Positions 4,178-15,478 of a stretch of DNA of 15,478 bases are shown here, one piece after another. This stretch comes from Escherichia coli (GTDB lineage Bacteria; Pseudomonadota; Gammaproteobacteria; Enterobacterales; Enterobacteriaceae). The position numbers and the translations under genes are program-made. Position 1 is the stretch's first letter, and each line of letters begins with the position of its first letter. The stretch is taken from NCBI RefSeq assembly GCF_003334815.1, contig NZ_QOWO01000055.1. One strand, written 5' to 3'. Below the pieces are notes generated by a model. The model saw only the letters and a list, made by a program, of their open reading frames with translations. It had not been told where the DNA came from and made no database searches.

Positions 4178-5113
4178 ATGATGCGTCGTGTAAATATTCT
4201 TTGCTCATTTGCTCTGCTTTTTGCCAGCCATACTAGCCTGGCGGTAACTTATCCATTACCTCCAGAGGGTAGCCGTTTGGTGGGGCAGTCGCTTACTGTA
4301 ACTGTTCCTGATCACAATACCCAGCCGCTGGAGACTTTTGCCGCACAATACGGGCAAGGGTTAAGTAACATGCTGGAAGCGAATCCGGGCGCTGATGTTT
4401 TCTTGCCGAAGTCTGGCTCGCAACTCACCATTCCGCAGCAACTGATTTTGCCCGCCACTGTTCGTAAAGGGATTGTGGTTAACGTCGCTGAGATGCGTCT
4501 TTATTACTACCCGCCAGACAGTAATACTGTGGAAGTCTTTCCTATTGGTATCGGCCAGGCTGGGCGAGAAACCCCGCGTAACTGGGTGACTACCGTTGAA
4601 CGTAAACAAGAAGCTCCAACCTGGACGCCAACGCCGAACACTCGGCGCGAATATGCGAAACGAGGGGAGAGTTTGCCCGCATTTGTTCCTGCGGGGCCCG
4701 ATAATCCCATGGGGCTGTACGCGATTTATATTGGCAGGTTGTATGCCATCCACGGTACCAATGCCAATTTTGGTATTGGACTTCGGGTAAGTCAGGGCTG
4801 TATTCGTCTGCGCAATGACGATATCAAATATCTGTTTGATAATGTTCCTGTTGGAACGCGTGTGCAAATTATCGACCAGCCAGTAAAATACACCACTGAA
4901 CCAGATGGCTCGAACTGGCTGGAAGTTCATGAGCCGCTGTCGCGCAATCGTGCAGAATATGAGTCTGACCGAAAAGTGCCATTGCCGGTAACCCCATCTT
5001 TGCGGGCGTTTATCAACGGGCAAGAAGTTGATGTGAATCGCGCAAAAGCTGCGTTGCAACGTCGATCGGGAATGCCTGTGCAAATTAGTTCTGGTTCAAG
5101 ACAGATGTTTTAA
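4178..5113 (+). CDS. ldtA: L,D-transpeptidase LdtA (ErfK), YkuD-domain periplasmic protein
   Basis: ORF with N-terminal signal peptide ([22 protein letters not shown]) and L,D-transpeptidase catalytic region (HGT...SQGCIRL). Tandem ATGs at 4178 and 4181; K-12 ErfK is 310 aa, which fits a start at 4181. RBS AGGAAAGGGA at 4167-4176. Confidence 0.9.
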
Positions 5114-5135
5114 GAGCGTTGGTAATTAGAAAGCA

Positions 5136-5164
5136 AAAAGCCTGCTAGAAAGCAGGCTTTTTTG
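5136..5164. terminator. Bidirectional rho-independent terminator between ldtA (+) and tRNA-Asn (-)
   Basis: Stem AGCCTGCT (5139-5146), loop AGAA, stem AGCAGGCT (5151-5158), flanked by an A-run upstream and a T-run downstream, so it works in both directions. Confidence 0.7.
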
Positions 5165-5168
5165 AATT

Positions 5169-5244
5169 TGGCTCCTCTGACTGGACTCGAACCAGTGACA
5201 TACGGATTAACAGTCCGCCGTTCTACCGACTGAACTACAGAGGA
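5169..5244 (-). tRNA. asnV: tRNA-Asn (anticodon GUU)
   Basis: Reverse complement is TCCTCTGTAGTTCAGTCGGTAGAACGGCGGACTGTTAATCCGTATGTCACTGGTTCGAGTCCAGTCAGAGGAGCCA, 76 nt with encoded CCA and anticodon loop CTGTTAA. Gene name assigned by synteny (between nac and erfK in K-12). Confidence 0.96.
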
Positions 5245-5262
5245 ATCGTGTGAATGGGGCGC

Positions 5263-5291
5263 ATATTAATGGCAGTGCATGGTGATGTCAA
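5263..5291 (-). promoter_or_regulatory. Sigma70 promoter of tRNA-Asn (asnV) with GC-rich discriminator
   Basis: On the minus strand: -35 TTGACA (5286-5291), 17-bp spacer, -10 TAATAT (5263-5268), then GC-rich discriminator GCGCCCC before the tRNA 5' end; typical stable-RNA promoter layout. Confidence 0.6.
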
Positions 5292-5364
5292 AGGGTGAAA
5301 TGCATTTTTTTGTTTGTTTGCTGCCAATTTCAACAAAGTGATGAGATTTCAATCTTATTGGTAA

Positions 5365-5381
5365 TGAACCATCGTGGTGCA
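5365..5381 (+). promoter_or_regulatory. Candidate NtrC (NRI) enhancer half-site pair upstream of nac
   Basis: TGAACCATCGTGGTGCA resembles the NtrC consensus TGCACCA-N3-TGGTGCA; it lies about 150 bp upstream of the predicted sigma54 start site. Confidence 0.35.
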
Positions 5382-5498
5382 TACCCTCCTTTTATAGGGC
5401 AGGGGAACGCGACTGCTGGTGAAAAGAGCCAATGACGAATCTATCATAATCTCTTATTTGACAGTTGGTTAGCTTGTACATCAACGCCAAAATAAAAC

Positions 5499-5514
5499 TG
5501 GCAAGCATCTTGCA
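5499..5514 (+). promoter_or_regulatory. Sigma54 (RpoN) promoter of nac
   Basis: TGGCAAGCATCTTGCA: near-consensus -24 GG / -12 GC elements (TGGCA-N7-TTGCA) about 55 bp upstream of the nac ATG; nac is a known sigma54/NtrC-dependent gene. Confidence 0.75.
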
Positions 5515-5569
5515 GTCTGGTTGTAAGTAATGGCGGCACTTGGGCCGATTCTCAAAAACCGGAGGCAAC

Positions 5570-6487
5570 ATGAACTTCAGACGCCTGAAATACTTCGTAA
5601 AAATTGTAGATATTGGTAGCCTGACTCAGGCTGCTGAAGTATTGCATATCGCACAACCAGCGCTCAGCCAGCAGGTTGCCACACTGGAAGGTGAGTTAAA
5701 TCAACAACTTTTGATTCGCACAAAACGGGGCGTTACGCCAACAGACGCCGGAAAAATTCTCTATACCCATGCGCGGGCCATTTTACGTCAGTGTGAGCAG
5801 GCCCAACTGGCGGTGCATAACGTTGGTCAGGCATTATCGGGGCAAGTCTCGATTGGCTTTGCGCCAGGAACCGCTGCGTCATCTATCACCATGCCCTTAT
5901 TACAAGCGGTTCGCGCTGAATTCCCGGAGATCGTTATCTATCTTCATGAAAATAGCGGTGCAGTGCTTAACGAAAAACTGATAAATCACCAACTCGATAT
6001 GGCGGTGATTTATGAGCATTCCCCTGTGGCTGGGGTATCCAGTCAGGCTTTGCTGAAAGAAGATCTTTTCCTGGTAGGAACTCAAGATTGCCCGGGGCAA
6101 AGCGTTGATGTTAATGCTATTGCGCAAATGAACCTCTTTCTCCCCAGTGATTACAGTGCTGTTAGACTTCGTGTTGATGAGGCTTTTTCCCTACGGCGGC
6201 TCACGGCAAAAGTCATTGGTGAAATTGAGTCTATTGCCACGCTTACCGCAGCGATTGCCAGCGGCATGGGCGTTGCAGTATTACCCGAATCGGCCGCGCG
6301 TTCGTTATGTGGCGCAGTAAATGGGTGGATGTCACGCATTACCACGCCTTCCATGAGTCTCTCTTTGTCATTAAATTTACCCGCCAGAGCGAACTTATCG
6401 CCACAGGCACAGGCAGTGAAAGAGTTGTTAATGTCAGTGATTAGTTCTCCAGTGATGGAAAAAAGGCAGTGGCAATTGGTGAGCTAA
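5570..6487 (+). CDS. nac: LysR-family nitrogen assimilation control protein Nac
   Basis: Start at ATG 5570 (MNFRRLKYFVKIVDIGSLTQAAEVLHIAQPALSQQ...), 305 aa, matching E. coli Nac as remembered. The ORF-track start at 5540 is a TTG extension. RBS GGAGG at 5561-5565. Confidence 0.93.
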   Translation: MNFRRLKYFVKIVDIGSLTQAAEVLHIAQPALSQQVATLEGELNQQLLIRTKRGVTPTDAGKILYTHARAILRQCEQAQLAVHNVGQALSGQVSIGFAPGTAASSITMPLLQAVRAEFPEIVIYLHENSGAVLNEKLINHQLDMAVIYEHSPVAGVSSQALLKEDLFLVGTQDCPGQSVDVNAIAQMNLFLPSDYSAVRLRVDEAFSLRRLTAKVIGEIESIATLTAAIASGMGVAVLPESAARSLCGAVNGWMSRITTPSMSLSLSLNLPARANLSPQAQAVKELLMSVISSPVMEKRQWQLVS

Positions 6488-6588
6488 GCGTTATATCGGG
6501 ATGGAATAAGATGCGGGTTTTTATTATTTGTTATGCCGGGCATTAGACTTTAACAATAACGGGAAATCTGAGCTGCCCGGAGTTTACC

Positions 6589-7539
6589 GTGAATTTCCAA
6601 CAACTAAAGATAATCCGCGAGGCTGCACGTCAGGATTACAACCTGACAGAGGTTGCGAATATGCTTTTTACCTCACAGTCCGGCGTCAGCCGTCATATTC
6701 GGGAACTGGAGGATGAACTTGGCATCGAAATATTTGTTCGACGAGGTAAGCGACTGCTGGGCATGACTGAACCGGGCAAAGCATTACTGGTCATTGCAGA
6801 ACGTATTCTGAATGAAGCCAGTAATGTTCGTCGGCTTGCAGACCTGTTTACCAACGATACGTCTGGCGTTCTCACTATTGCAACGACGCATACTCAGGCA
6901 CGTTATAGCTTGCCTGAGGTCATTAAAGCTTTTCGCGAACTTTTCCCGGAGGTTCGGCTGGAGCTAATCCAGGGTACGCCACAGGAAATTGCGACGTTGT
7001 TGCAAAATGGCGAAGCTGATATTGGTATCGCCAGCGAGCGTTTGAGTAATGACCCGCAGCTCGTCGCCTTCCCGTGGTTTCGTTGGCACCATAGTTTGCT
7101 TGTTCCACTCGATCATCCCTTGACGCAAATTACACCGTTGACGCTGGAATCAATAGCGAAGTGGCCGTTAATCACTTACCGACAGGGGATTACGGGGCGC
7201 TCACGTATTGATGACGCATTTGCCCGCAAAGGTTTGCTGGCAGATATTGTATTAAGTGCGCAGGATTCTGATGTCATTAAAACCTATGTTGCTCTTGGGC
7301 TGGGGATTGGATTAGTTGCCGAACAATCCAGCGGCGAACAAGAGGAAGAGAATTTAATCCGTCTGGATACGCGGCATCTTTTCGATGCCAATACTGTATG
7401 GTTGGGACTGAAGCGAGGGCAACTTCAACGTAACTATGTCTGGCGCTTTCTGGAACTTTGTAATGCAGGACTGTCAGTTGAGGATATCAAGCGCCAGGTG
7501 ATGGAGAACAGTGAAGAGGAAATTGATTATCAGATATAG
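6589..7539 (+). CDS. cbl: LysR-family regulator Cbl (CysB-like; sulfonate-sulfur utilisation activator)
   Basis: 316-aa ORF starting with GTG at 6589 (MNFQQLKIIREAARQDYNLTEVANMLFTSQSGVSRHIRELEDELG...), immediately downstream of nac as in E. coli. Confidence 0.93.
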   Translation: MNFQQLKIIREAARQDYNLTEVANMLFTSQSGVSRHIRELEDELGIEIFVRRGKRLLGMTEPGKALLVIAERILNEASNVRRLADLFTNDTSGVLTIATTHTQARYSLPEVIKAFRELFPEVRLELIQGTPQEIATLLQNGEADIGIASERLSNDPQLVAFPWFRWHHSLLVPLDHPLTQITPLTLESIAKWPLITYRQGITGRSRIDDAFARKGLLADIVLSAQDSDVIKTYVALGLGIGLVAEQSSGEQEEENLIRLDTRHLFDANTVWLGLKRGQLQRNYVWRFLELCNAGLSVEDIKRQVMENSEEEIDYQI

Positions 7540-7544
7540 CAAGA

Positions 7545-7568
7545 AGCCCGCTATAAAAGCGGGCTTTT
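7545..7568. terminator. Bidirectional rho-independent terminator between cbl (+) and tRNA-Asn (-)
   Basis: Stem AGCCCGC (7545-7551), loop TATAAAA, stem GCGGGCT (7559-7565), then TTTT. Confidence 0.7.
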
Positions 7569-7576
7569 CAGAAATT

Positions 7577-7652
7577 TGGCTCCTCTGACTGGACTCGAAC
7601 CAGTGACATACGGATTAACAGTCCGCCGTTCTACCGACTGAACTACAGAGGA
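7577..7652 (-). tRNA. asnU: tRNA-Asn (anticodon GUU)
   Basis: Identical 76-nt sequence to the other two tRNA-Asn copies (reverse complement of 7577-7652). Name by synteny (between cbl and yeeO). Confidence 0.96.
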
Positions 7653-7668
7653 ATCGCTGTTGAGGCAC

Positions 7669-7696
7669 ATCTTAACGGCGAAAAATCTTTTGTCAA
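7669..7696 (-). promoter_or_regulatory. Sigma70 promoter of tRNA-Asn (asnU)
   Basis: Minus strand: -35 TTGACA (7691-7696), 16-bp spacer, -10 TAAGAT (7669-7674), GC-rich discriminator GTGCCTC, then tRNA. Confidence 0.6.
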
Positions 7697-7812
7697 ACCC
7701 GATTTTTAAATTTCCCAACTGTTTGCCGTTTCTATCAACAGTTTGTTGCATTTGCAGACAATTTGTTGGCGAAAATCTTTGCAGCTTTGCTGATTCTCCC
7801 TCATTATTTGAA

Positions 7813-9300
7813 ATGTGGTTTCACTTTCTGCAATTAAGGTCGGCTTTGAATATCTCCTCTGCTTTACGCCAGGTTGTTCACGGCACTCGCTGGCACGCTA
7901 AACGCAAGAGCTACAAAGTGTTGTTCTGGCGCGAGATAACCCCGCTTGCTGTTCCTATCTTCATGGAGAATGCCTGTGTCCTGTTGATGGGTGTCCTGAG
8001 CACTTTTCTGGTCAGCTGGCTGGGAAAAGATGCGATGGCCGGCGTGGGATTGGCGGACAGCTTCAATATGGTCATTATGGCTTTTTTTGCTGCTATCGAT
8101 CTTGGTACTACTGTCGTTGTGGCATTTAGTCTCGGTAAGCGGGATCGACGACGAGCGAGGGTGGCGACGCGGCAGTCATTGGTGATCATGACGTTGTTTG
8201 CCGTACTGTTGGCAACGCTTATTCATCATTTTGGCGAACAAATTATTGATTTCGTCGCGGGTGATGCCACGACAGAAGTTAAAGCACTGGCGTTGACTTA
8301 TCTGGAGCTGACGGTACTCAGTTATCCAGCAGTTGCCATCACTTTGATTGGTAGCGGGGCACTTCGTGGTGCAGGGAATACGAAAATACCGCTACTGATT
8401 AACGGTAGCCTGAATATTCTTAATATTATTATTAGCGGCATATTGATTTACGGCCTTTTCTCCTGGCCGGGACTGGGATTTGTCGGGGCAGGGCTGGGTT
8501 TAACCATTTCTCGTTATATTGGCGCAGTTGCAATTTTGTGGGTGCTGGCGATTGGTTTTAATCCTGCGCTAAGGATTTCGTTAAAGAGCTATTTTAAACC
8601 GCTGAATTTTAGCATTATCTGGGAAGTCATGGGGATTGGTATTCCCGCTAGTGTCGAATCAGTGTTATTTACCAGTGGTCGGTTATTAACCCAAATGTTC
8701 GTTGCCGGGATGGGGACCAGTGTTATTGCCGGAAATTTTATCGCGTTTTCAATTGCGGCTCTTATCAACTTACCCGGAAGTGCGCTCGGCTCTGCTTCTA
8801 CGATCATTACAGGCCGAAGGTTGGGGGTAGGGCAGATAGCGCAAGCAGAGATTCAGTTGCGGCATGTGTTCTGGCTGTCCACTCTTGGATTAACGGCCAT
8901 CGCCTGGCTAACGGCTCCCTTTGCCGGGCTTATGGCATCGTTTTACACCCAGGATCCACAGGTTAAACATGTCGTTGTGATTCTGATTTGGCTAAATGCT
9001 TTATTTATGCCTATTTGGTCCGCCTCATGGGTGCTACCCGCTGGATTTAAAGGTGCTCGTGATGCCCGTTACGCCATGTGGGTTTCGATGTTGAGCATGT
9101 GGGGTTGTCGGGTTGTCGTCGGTTATGTGCTGGGAATCATGCTTGGCTGGGGTGTGGTTGGTGTCTGGATGGGAATGTTTGCCGACTGGGCTGTGCGGGC
9201 TGTGCTGTTTTACTGGCGAATGGTTACTGGACGTTGGCTATGGAAATACCCTCGACCCGAGCCGCAAAAGTGTGAAAAAAAGCCAGTTGTGTCGGAATAA
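7813..9300 (+). CDS. yeeO: MATE-family efflux transporter YeeO (reported flavin/dipeptide exporter)
   Basis: Start placed at ATG 7813 (MWFHFLQLRSALNISSALRQ...), giving 495 aa with multiple hydrophobic transmembrane segments. The ORF-track 546-aa version starts at TTG 7660 and runs through the asnU promoter. Confidence 0.88.
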   Translation: MWFHFLQLRSALNISSALRQVVHGTRWHAKRKSYKVLFWREITPLAVPIFMENACVLLMGVLSTFLVSWLGKDAMAGVGLADSFNMVIMAFFAAIDLGTTVVVAFSLGKRDRRRARVATRQSLVIMTLFAVLLATLIHHFGEQIIDFVAGDATTEVKALALTYLELTVLSYPAVAITLIGSGALRGAGNTKIPLLINGSLNILNIIISGILIYGLFSWPGLGFVGAGLGLTISRYIGAVAILWVLAIGFNPALRISLKSYFKPLNFSIIWEVMGIGIPASVESVLFTSGRLLTQMFVAGMGTSVIAGNFIAFSIAALINLPGSALGSASTIITGRRLGVGQIAQAEIQLRHVFWLSTLGLTAIAWLTAPFAGLMASFYTQDPQVKHVVVILIWLNALFMPIWSASWVLPAGFKGARDARYAMWVSMLSMWGCRVVVGYVLGIMLGWGVVGVWMGMFADWAVRAVLFYWRMVTGRWLWKYPRPEPQKCEKKPVVSE

Positions 9301-9353
9301 ACGACAAAATGCAGATTATTTCAGCAAACGATTTCAAATTTAAAAAACAGGCT

Positions 9354-9382
9354 TTGACATTGTGGGTGGGCATCGCTAATAT
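9354..9382 (+). promoter_or_regulatory. Sigma70 promoter of tRNA-Asn (asnW) with upstream AT-rich UP-like region
   Basis: -35 TTGACA (9354-9359), 17-bp spacer, -10 TAATAT (9377-9382), GC-rich discriminator TCGCCTCG; AT-rich tract ATTTCAAATTTAAAAAACAG upstream. Confidence 0.65.
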
Positions 9383-9400
9383 TCGCCTCGTTCTCACGAT

Positions 9401-9476
9401 TCCTCTGTAGTTCAGTCGGTAGAACGGCGGACTGTTAATCCGTATGTCACTGGTTCGAGTCCAGTCAGAGGAGCCA
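9401..9476 (+). tRNA. asnW: tRNA-Asn (anticodon GUU)
   Basis: TCCTCTGTAGTTCAGTCGGTAGAACGGCGGACTGTTAATCCGTATGTCACTGGTTCGAGTCCAGTCAGAGGAGCCA. Name by synteny (between yeeO and yeeN). Confidence 0.96.
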
Positions 9477-9537
9477 AATTTTAGTTTTGAGACATCTCTA
9501 TGAGTCTCAAAACAGTTAAAAAATAAAAGTTATTTTT

Positions 9538-9574
9538 ACCCGGTTACCTTGTAAAAAAGTGACCGGGTTTTTTG
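9538..9574 (+). terminator. Rho-independent terminator downstream of asnW
   Basis: ACCCGGT (9538-9544), long loop, ACCGGGT (9562-9568), followed by TTTTTTG. A separate 10-bp perfect palindrome GTTTTGAGAC...GTCTCAAAAC at 9484-9513 precedes it. Confidence 0.6.
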
Positions 9575-9928: not shown

Positions 9929-10645
9929 TTAGAGATTTGCGACGTTATGATAAACTTTTTGTACATCGTCGTCATCTTCAAGGGCATCAACAAGCCCTTC
10001 AAAGATTTCTAAATCTTCTGGGGAAAGCTCAACTTCAGATTGCGCAATCATTTCTAATTCTGTTGTTGAGAACTCAGTGATTCCAGCTGCTTTTAGAGCC
10101 GCGATTCCTTTATGAAGGTCAGTAGGTTCGGTATAAATAACAATGTTACCTTCTTCTTCAGTCACATCACGAACATCAACTTCAGCTTCAAGTAAAATTT
10201 CAAAAATATGGTCAGGGTCTGATCCTTTAAATACAATCACACCCGTATTGTCAAACATATAGCTGACAGAACCTGCCGCTCCGATATTGCCGCCTTTTTT
10301 ATTGAAAATTGTGCGAACGTTAGCAATCGTACGGTTAACATTTGAAGTCAATGTCTCGGCGATAATCATTGAGCCATTAGGACCAAAGCCTTCATAACGG
10401 CCCTGCACGAACGTTTCATCTCCGCCGCCTTTGGCTTTATCAATTGCTTTATCAATAACGTGCTTTGGAACTTGTGCCTGCTTTGCACGTTCAATAACGA
10501 ATTTTAAAGATGTGTTTAATTCTGGATCGGGTTCACCTTGTTTAGCAGCAGCATAGATTTCTACACCGAATTTTGCATAAATTTTAGACGTTGCACCGTC
10601 TTTAGCCGTTTTTTTAGCAACAATATTGGCCCATTTACGTCCCAC
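9929..10645 (-). CDS. yeeN: YebC/PmpR-family transcriptional regulatory protein YeeN
   Basis: 238-aa ORF ([31 protein letters not shown]...), characteristic YebC-family N-terminus; matches E. coli YeeN in length. Confidence 0.92.
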
Positions 10646-14174: not shown

Positions 14175-14777
14175 ATGTTTTTAGCATCATTGTTGAGACG
14201 TATTGCATTTAGTTACTACGATTATAAAGCTTATAATTTCAATATTGAAAAAACAGACTTTGTTGTCATCCATATTCCCGATCAGATTGGCGATGCTATG
14301 GCCATCTTTCCTGTTATTCGGGCGCTTGAATTGCATAAAATTAAGCATCTATTAATTGTTACGTCGACAATTAATTTAGAAGTCTTTAATGCGCTCAAAC
14401 TTGAACTGACTAAATTAACATTAGTTACAATGACTATGCAGGATCACGCAACATTAAAAGAAATAAAAAATTTAGCGAAGAACATAACACTGCAATACGG
14501 TACGCCGGATCTTTGTATAGAGGCGATGCGTAAAAAGAACCTGAAAACGATGATATTTATCAGTCAGTTGAAAGCAAAAACGAATTTTCAGGTTGTTGGT
14601 ATAACCATGAATTGCTTCTCCCCTTTGTGCAAGAACGCGTCCCGTATGGATCAGAAACTCCGGGCTCCCGTACCTATGACATGGGCATTTATGATGCGTG
14701 AGGCGGGTTTTCCAGCAGTCAGGCCAATATATGAATTGAATCGCCACGGGTTTAACAGACACCTCAGAGTCATTTAA
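14175..14777 (+). pseudogene. yeeL: yeeL-like putative glycosyltransferase (family 9 heptosyltransferase-like N-terminal region), 3'-truncated remnant
   Basis: The 200-aa ORF has an N-terminal pattern resembling GT9 heptosyltransferases (VVIHIPDQIGDAMAIFPVIRALE) but is far shorter than the ~320-350 aa typical for the family. AT-rich body until about 14600, then a GC-richer tail that runs into the IS3-family element. Position divergent from shiA matches K-12 yeeL, which is a pseudogene there. Confidence 0.5.
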
Positions 14778-15050
14778 GATGACTTAAAGAGAGGTGCCCA
14801 TGAGTGGTAAGCGTTATCCCGAAGAGTTTAAAATTGAAGCAGTCAAACAGGTTGTTGATCGCGGTTATTCTGTTGCCAGCGTTGCAACACGTCTCGATAT
14901 CACCACCCACAGCCTTTACTCCTGGATAAAGAAGTACGGTCCGGATTCTTCCACTAATAAAGAACAGTCAGATGCTCAGGCCGAGATCCGCCGTCTCCAG
15001 AAAGAGCTGAAGCGGGTTACCGACGAACGGGACATATTAAAAAAAGCCGT
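14732..15050 (+). mobile_element. IS3-family insertion sequence (possibly IS600-like), 5' portion; left boundary approximate; interrupted at 15050/15051 by IS30
   Basis: Contains an IS3-family OrfA. Upstream sequence GGGTTTAACAGACACC carries the GGACAC-like motif common in IS3-family left ends. Left end placed 60-70 bp upstream of the orfA ATG by analogy; not verified. Confidence 0.55.
14800..15050 (+). pseudogene. IS3-family transposase OrfA (HTH plus leucine-zipper protein), C-terminally truncated by the IS30 insertion
   Basis: MSGKRYPEEFKIEAVKQVVDRGYSVASVATRLDITTHSLYSWIKKYGPDSSTNKEQSDAQAEIRRLQKELKRVTDERDILKKA, then reads into the IS30 end. Programmed -1 frameshift-type heptamer A_AAA_AAA at 15039-15045. 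The ORF-track start at GTG 14794 is 2 codons upstream. Confidence 0.75.
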
Positions 15051-15478
15051 TGTAGATTCAATCTGTCAATGCAACACCCCTTTCAATTATCTCTTTCGGT
15101 GTTTTGAACTTCAGTGTCTTTCTCGGTCTGTTGTTTAGCTGAGCAGCAACCAGATCTAGTTCATGTTGAGTATATTGGGCAAGACATGTCTTTTTAGGAA
15201 AGTACTGCCGAATTAGCCCATTTGTGTTCTCATTTGTTCCCCGCTGCCAAGGACTCTGAGGATCGCAGAAGTAAACTTTAACGCCGGTGCTGACAGTAAA
15301 TTCTAGATGTCTGGCCAGTTCCATTCCTCTGTCCCATGTCAGTGATTTTCTGAGTTCTGACGGTAAACTCAGGAATTTGTCGGTAAGAGCCTGATTTACT
15401 GAGACAGAATCTTTGCCCCTGAGTCTAAGGATGATCGTATAACGTGATTTTCGGTCTACAAGTGTGGCTATATGAGAG
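15051..15478 (-). mobile_element. IS30 insertion sequence, one end (terminal inverted repeat begins TGTAGATTCAAT at 15051); continues beyond the window
   Basis: The terminal sequence TGTAGATTCAATCTGTCAATGCAAC matches the remembered IS30 inverted repeat, and the adjacent ORF on the minus strand is the IS30 transposase C-terminus. Confidence 0.8.
15058..15478 (-). CDS. insI: IS30 transposase (DDE, IS30 family), C-terminal 139 codons; N-terminus lies outside the window
   Basis: The minus-strand frame is open from the window edge: SHIATLVDRKSRYTIILRLRGKDSVSVNQALTDKFLSLPSELRKSLTWDRGMELARHLEFTVSTGVKVYFCDPQSPWQRGTNENTNGLIRQYFPKKTCLAQYTQHELDLVAAQLNNRPRKTLKFKTPKEIIERGVALTD. It contains the IS30-family signature PWQRG-NENTNGL-RQYFPK. 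Confidence 0.85.
   Translation of the reverse strand, partial: SHIATLVDRKSRYTIILRLRGKDSVSVNQALTDKFLSLPSELRKSLTWDRGMELARHLEFTVSTGVKVYFCDPQSPWQRGTNENTNGLIRQYFPKKTCLAQYTQHELDLVAAQLNNRPRKTLKFKTPKEIIERGVALTD

Follow-up and report, generated by a model that had tools for sequence, protein, structure and literature searches.

Three identical tRNA-Asn genes with unoccupied 3' ends in an Escherichia coli segment, and the products of exchange predicted between them

In Klebsiella, the element ICEKp uses any of several asn tRNA genes. In Escherichia coli, the pks (colibactin) island is located at asnW and the High Pathogenicity Island (HPI) at asnT or asnV, and the tRNA genes used by these islands as attachment sites are those under study here: asnV, asnU and asnW, carried by a 15,478-bp stretch of E. 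coli chromosome (the window). The three asn genes have been reported to be 100% identical, and any of asnW, asnV and asnU can harbour pks (Auvray 2021, PMC8209727). In the same work the P4-type integrases of HPI and pks have the tRNA 3' end as their attachment site, and several identical asn tRNA copies are discussed as alternative integration sites in Yersinia (PMC8209727). According to the literature, the last ~17-25 nt of each tRNA gene would form the attachment site for the P4-type tyrosine integrases of HPI, pks and related conjugative elements. Moreover, the segment itself can be inverted. The inverted orientation of a 4309-bp region is specific to typical pks+ B2 strains (Auvray 2021, PMC8209727), an inversion of yeeO-tRNA(Asn)-cbl-gltC was described (Wami 2021, PMC8461471), and an asnW/asnV inversion, termed possibly dynamic, was observed in cultures of UTI89 (Russell 2019, PMC6458436).

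Our results suggested that the window contains the standard E. coli asnV-nac-cbl-asnU-yeeO-asnW segment, free of islands, a reading to which we assign a probability of about 95%. The feature is already known and is found here in its commonest, unremarkable state. The published 4309-bp asnV-asnW inversion uses the same inverted tRNA copies as its substrate, and the window represents the non-inverted state. The small addition made here is a set of population-scale counts of the recombination products, including the inversion of yeeO alone. This inversion, and the deletion between asnV and asnU, are smaller products of the same kind as the published one; neither the yeeO-only inversion nor the nac-cbl deletion was found described in the literature searched, where such an absence is no proof of their being undescribed. 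Beyond bookkeeping the significance is small. The asn cluster is the landing pad of two medically important islands.

The asnV-asnW segment and its usual arrangement

ARAGORN identified exactly three tRNA-Asn genes with anticodon GTT in the window, each of them 76 bp long and each matched by Rfam: asnV (5169-5244, minus strand, CCA encoded) between ldtA and nac, asnU (7577-7652, minus strand) between cbl and yeeO, and asnW (9401-9476, plus strand) between yeeO and yeeN. The three scored 72.6 bits each against Rfam RF00005, for which the gathering score is 29, and the Rfam scan of the whole window returned nothing besides them, with no small RNA in the asnW-yeeN spacer. In support of the preliminary description of this DNA, which had proposed three identical copies within 4.3 kb, two on the minus strand and one on the plus strand, string comparison established that the 76-bp sequences are mutually identical, and the distance from asnV to asnW (5169-9476) is 4308 bp. 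The identity reaches 4 bp past each end of the genes, with CGAT upstream and AATT downstream.

For the three genes the names of the K-12 map are used. Gene names and strands match that map, and the literature gives the same order, asnW-asnU-asnV around yeeO, cbl and nac/gltC, and a size of 4309 bp, in agreement with the 4308 bp measured here. Note that the window is drawn on the strand opposite to the K-12 map. The GTT cloverleaf, the identical copies and the map position ldtA-asnV-nac-cbl-asnU-yeeO-asnW-yeeN are all those of the tRNA-Asn(GUU) family, of which K-12 has four copies when asnT is included; three of the four chromosomal copies of this single gene are located here. Sequence, neighbours, relative orientations and the 4.3-kb span are the same in K-12, the junction queries described below match K-12 records at 97.5-98.3% identity, and we found no substantive difference between both loci.

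The window is 100% identical to positions 436137-451614 of strain 52F4 (NZ_CM147848.1), whose RefSeq annotation provides the gene order: cobU-cobS-cobT-ldtA, tRNA-Asn(-), nac, cbl, tRNA-Asn(-), yeeO, tRNA-Asn(+), yeeN(-), amn(-), shiA(-). Thus, the tRNA genes delimit two modules, the first with the LysR-type regulators nac and cbl (5570-7539, plus strand) between asnV and asnU, and the second with the MATE efflux transporter yeeO (7813-9300, plus strand) between asnU and asnW. At the outer sides, the core genes ldtA (4178-5113, plus strand) and yeeN (9929-10645, minus strand) face the 3' ends of asnV and asnW, respectively.

The window sequence was matched in all of the 5426 complete E. coli genomes that served as the reference set for every count given here. 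Using 1076-bp queries centred on each tRNA, and scoring a junction as intact when 80% or more of the query was covered at a single place, we found the native junction intact in 4665 genomes for asnV (86%), 5177 for asnU (95%) and 4975 for asnW (92%). The empty, collinear layout is therefore the majority state in E. coli. These counts provide a baseline for the intactness of each site, useful when an insertion site has to be named 'asnV' or 'asnW' from short-read data: since the tRNA bodies are identical, a copy can be distinguished by its flanks only, and recombination swaps those flanks.

Two simple interpretations of the counts were rejected. A broken native junction cannot be equated with an island, because the asnU junction of strain I4 is broken by an inversion of yeeO. 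The apparent plasmid-borne copies of tRNA-Asn (13-14 plasmid places) were also dropped, since the one inspected was a mis-binned linear chromosomal fragment: the linear, 5969-bp 'plasmid unnamed2' of strain AH21A060 (NZ_CP196293.1) consists of yeeO'-tRNA-cbl-nac-tRNA-ldtA-cobT-cobS, and is an artefact of assembly or binning in a genome recorded as 'complete'.

Departures from the native layout were searched for with a synthetic junction sequence built for each predicted exchange. The commonest product was the one expected from asnV and asnW, which the preliminary description had not mentioned. The inverted repeat arm at 9377-9480 pairs with 5165-5268 (104 nt, 96% identity) and is the substrate for inversion of the whole asnV-asnW block; the corresponding hybrid junction yeeN|tRNA|nac was present in 265 of the 5426 genomes (~4.9%), and in strain HM670 the flanks enclose the block 5165-9481 in reverse orientation. 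The other junction expected from this inversion, in which ldtA adjoins the tRNA 3' end with no island between them, was found in one genome only, SE15. In KL53 a double exchange has swapped the 3' flanks of all three tRNAs; this strain has yeeN beside the nac-side tRNA, yeeO inverted and an integrase island after the third tRNA, and its yeeN is split by ISVsa5.

The existence of both block orientations raises the possibility that the layout of the window is the derived one, produced by an asnV/asnW exchange, and that the orientation of the pks+ B2 strains is ancestral. The comparison covered genomes of E. coli, and the 104-nt likeness of asnV and asnW, which extends 24 nt into the promoters, would be compatible with a past exchange. 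However, the layout of the window is found in 86-95% of the 5426 genomes, against 265 with the hybrid junction; two studies regard the inversion as a derived state linked to the fixation of pks in B2 (PMC8209727, PMC8461471); and the inverted block with an island-free ldtA junction occurs in SE15 only. We consequently regard a derived origin of the window layout as improbable, and the non-inverted, island-free arrangement as the standard one.

Unoccupied attachment sites

The preliminary description had noted that core genes lie close to each tRNA 3' end, with neither an integrase gene nor a second copy of the 3'-end repeat. Our analyses support this. From the tRNA 3' end to the stop codon of the facing gene there are 55 bp between asnV and ldtA, 37 bp between asnU and cbl, and 452 bp between asnW and yeeN. 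The annotation shows no integrase in the window, nor in the 17 kb on either side of it in 52F4. When a 25-nt 3'-end motif and the 17-nt motif CCAGTCAGAGGAGCCAA were searched in the window with up to 3 mismatches, the only matches were those inside the three tRNA genes (matches expected by chance, 0.00 and 0.03, respectively). In 49 kb of 52F4, with up to 2 mismatches, the sole further copy of the 17-mer belonged to the fourth gene, asnT, which is also empty in this strain: yeeJ follows asnT directly, with no island. Moreover, none of the cargo genes ybt/irp/fyuA or clb appears in the annotation of the window sequence. The absence of an integrase and of a second direct repeat shows the three 3' ends to be unoccupied.

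The sites occupied by pks or HPI look different, whereas in the window none of the three sites shows an island, an integrase or a flanking direct repeat. In the occupied genomes, the integrase gene begins ~160 bp past the tRNA. Thus, in the pks+ strain HM670 there are 162 bp between asnW and the start of the integrase gene, beyond which come clbS to clbN; in ECKH-505, asnV is followed by an integrase and by ybtS-ybtX-ybtQ-ybtP; FHI_NMBU_03 carries HPI at asnT; and TC24, KL53 and 2016C-3878 also have an integrase after the tRNA. No such island is integrated in the present strain, and a strain with all its asn sites empty is without HPI (yersiniabactin) and pks (colibactin) at their usual sites.

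The length of the asnW-yeeN spacer deserves attention here, because 452 bp, compared with the 37-55 bp at asnU and asnV, could represent the decayed remnant of an old island, in which case the asnW site would not be truly virgin. The spacer is A+T-rich and contains two hairpins and ~300 bp with no annotated feature. Against this, the tRNA 3' end is not partially repeated in it (up to 3 mismatches), it has no annotated integrase-like gene and no Rfam match, it is found at 95.6-100% identity across 4975 genomes, and it remains joined to yeeN in the B2 genomes that have the block inverted. Being widely conserved and staying with yeeN, the spacer is core sequence of the species, and we consider an island remnant very improbable.

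A separate observation concerns FHI_NMBU_03 and the O157:H7 strain WS4202, in which the tRNA-Asn junction queries gave one match only. These strains appear to have just one of the usual four tRNA-Asn genes left, following a large deletion of the asnW-asnV region; FHI_NMBU_03 retains asnT alone, with HPI.

Exchange between the tRNA copies

Because of their identity over 84-104 bp, the tRNA copies would act as short stretches of homology for RecA-type recombination, the inverted pairs leading to inversion either of yeeO by itself or of the 4.3-kb block as a whole, and the direct pair to deletion of nac-cbl. Recombination requires a minimal homology of ~25 bp, which the repeats of 84, 85 and 104 nt exceed. 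All three predicted products are present in natural genomes.

The smaller inversion involves the arm at 7572-7656, which is repeated in inverted orientation at 9397-9481 (85 nt, 100% identity). Its junction cbl|tRNA|yeeO-3' was found at full length in 32 of the 5426 genomes, and the reciprocal junction yeeO-5'|tRNA|yeeN in 34, mostly the same strains, so that this product has a frequency of ~0.6%. The strains TC24, O157:H16 Santai and I4 have the clean order tRNA(-) nac cbl tRNA(-) yeeO(-) tRNA(+) yeeN(-). When these genomes were aligned to the window by blastn, the inverted segment corresponded exactly to 7572-9481 and shared 85 bp with the flanking alignment on either side, which places the breakpoints inside the tRNA repeats. 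The proposal that the inverted asnU/asnW pair is a substrate for inversion was therefore borne out. The junctions fall into several identity classes (97.0-99.7%) and come from different hosts, countries and laboratories, which suggests that the yeeO-only inversion has had more than one origin. We tentatively propose, at slightly less than even odds, that it is a recurrent and possibly reversible polymorphism that arose independently in several lineages, perhaps with a small effect on fitness or expression. Note that this inversion changes the orientation of yeeO and of two tRNA-Asn genes with respect to the replication fork.

The least probable of the alternatives is that the yeeO-only inversions and the nac-cbl deletions seen elsewhere are assembly artefacts: the locus is demonstrably broken in one assembly or more (the 5969-bp linear 'plasmid' of AH21A060), but a wholesale artefact is unlikely because short reads, and long reads by far, exceed the 85-bp length of the repeats, both reciprocal yeeO junctions occur in largely the same genomes and in the several identity classes and diverse sources mentioned above, and separately submitted strains share the inversion (AH62 and AH65, ES7 and ES8).

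The deletion predicted from the direct pair (5165-5248 with 7573-7656, 84 nt, 100% identity) was also observed, as had been anticipated, although the loss of nac-cbl is very rare. MEI3O-23, the one genome of this kind inspected, has a clean deletion, with the order ldtA, tRNA, yeeO, tRNA, yeeN. This genome is 99.83% identical to the window to the left of the tRNA and only 97.7% to its right; the deletion junction thus coincides with a switch of ancestry, which hints that the deletion may have arisen during recombination with imported DNA. The deletion junction ldtA|tRNA|yeeO-5' was found in 35 of the 5426 genomes. Counting all of these as nac-cbl deletions was rejected, since the inspected genomes with 97.5% identity (2016C-3878 and PK12) retain nac-cbl ~17 kb away. 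For this reason the presence of nac-cbl was counted directly: 7 of the 5426 genomes (0.13%) lack it wholly, and in 9 others its coverage is below 80%.

A consensus scan located a promoter-like site upstream of each gene, scoring 10/12 in the three cases: for asnV at 5263-5291 (minus strand; TTGACA, 17 nt, TAATAT, with a G+C-rich discriminator), for asnU at 7669-7696 (minus strand; TTGACA, 16 nt, TAAGAT) and for asnW at 9354-9382 (plus strand; TTGACA, 17 nt, TAATAT). A G+C-rich stretch separates the -10 hexamer from the start of each tRNA, and the TTTGACA block at the asnV site is conserved in the alignment. Downstream, the scan found a putative terminator hairpin for asnV at 5135-5162 (minus strand; 12-bp stem followed by a U run; fold of -18 kcal/mol, z -5.5), which is sited between asnV and the convergent ldtA and may serve both. 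A hairpin with a 9-bp G+C-rich stem lies after asnU at 7544-7566 (minus strand; -16.3 kcal/mol, z -3.6), and two hairpins lie after asnW within 9484-9574 (plus strand; 9484-9513 and 9538-9568, the second followed by UUUUUU; -33.6 kcal/mol, z -5.9). From these elements, we infer that each tRNA is probably a monocistronic unit with a strong predicted sigma-70 promoter and a predicted intrinsic terminator. In addition, the likeness of asnV and asnW extends over the 24 nt upstream of the tRNA (5245-5268 and 9377-9400), up to the -10 region and discriminator, where asnU does not share it; this is compatible with a past duplication or with gene conversion between the two copies.

In the proposed model, what is swapped in an exchange would be the tRNA body together with the flank 3' of it and nothing else. 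Each promoter would thus still drive an identical tRNA with a terminator, and the inversions would consequently be nearly neutral. The rarity of the nac-cbl deletion would be explained by the loss of two regulators and of one of the four tRNA-Asn copies.

No finding contradicts the identification of the locus, and the limits are of another kind. RecA-dependent exchange, as opposed to other routes, is proposed from the position of the breakpoints. The inspected members of the ldtA|tRNA|yeeO group with 97.5% identity are a rearranged lineage and not simple deletions: 2016C-3878 and PK12 have the order ldtA-tRNA(-)-yeeO-tRNA(+), then two facing integrase-bearing islands (with Rhs and toxin-antitoxin genes), then tRNA(-)-nac-cbl, and no tRNA after cbl, where a type VI secretion island is found instead. 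Some 'complete' assemblies are faulty at this locus, and a few of the rearranged genomes could be assembly errors. Finally, the promoter and terminator calls are consensus matches made at the sequence level, and the promoter scan gave 10 promoter-like sites overall, with 6.9 expected.

The edges of the window

The strain is a bovine isolate, and compared with K-12 additional insertion sequence (IS) fragments are present at the edges of the window. The left edge (1-1606) opens with the last part of a frameshifted IS3-family transposase (1-251), and also contains an IS4 fragment (1248-1436) and, directly upstream of cobU, a truncated cobalamin-biosynthesis gene (1445-1606). In 2016C-3878 and PK12, cobU is adjoined instead by pduF-pocR, a cobalamin riboswitch and a hypothetical gene. 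Since other lineages retain pduF-pocR and the riboswitch beside cobU, the window would represent a decayed state of the cob/pdu region. At the right edge (14175-15478), position 14738 marks the truncation of a glycosyltransferase family 9 gene (yeeL-like), which is followed by a transposase fragment (14800-15048) and by the start of an IS30 element. Beyond this edge in 52F4, yeeJ is likewise truncated, by IS3 and IS30 (32058-36022 of the 52F4 stretch).

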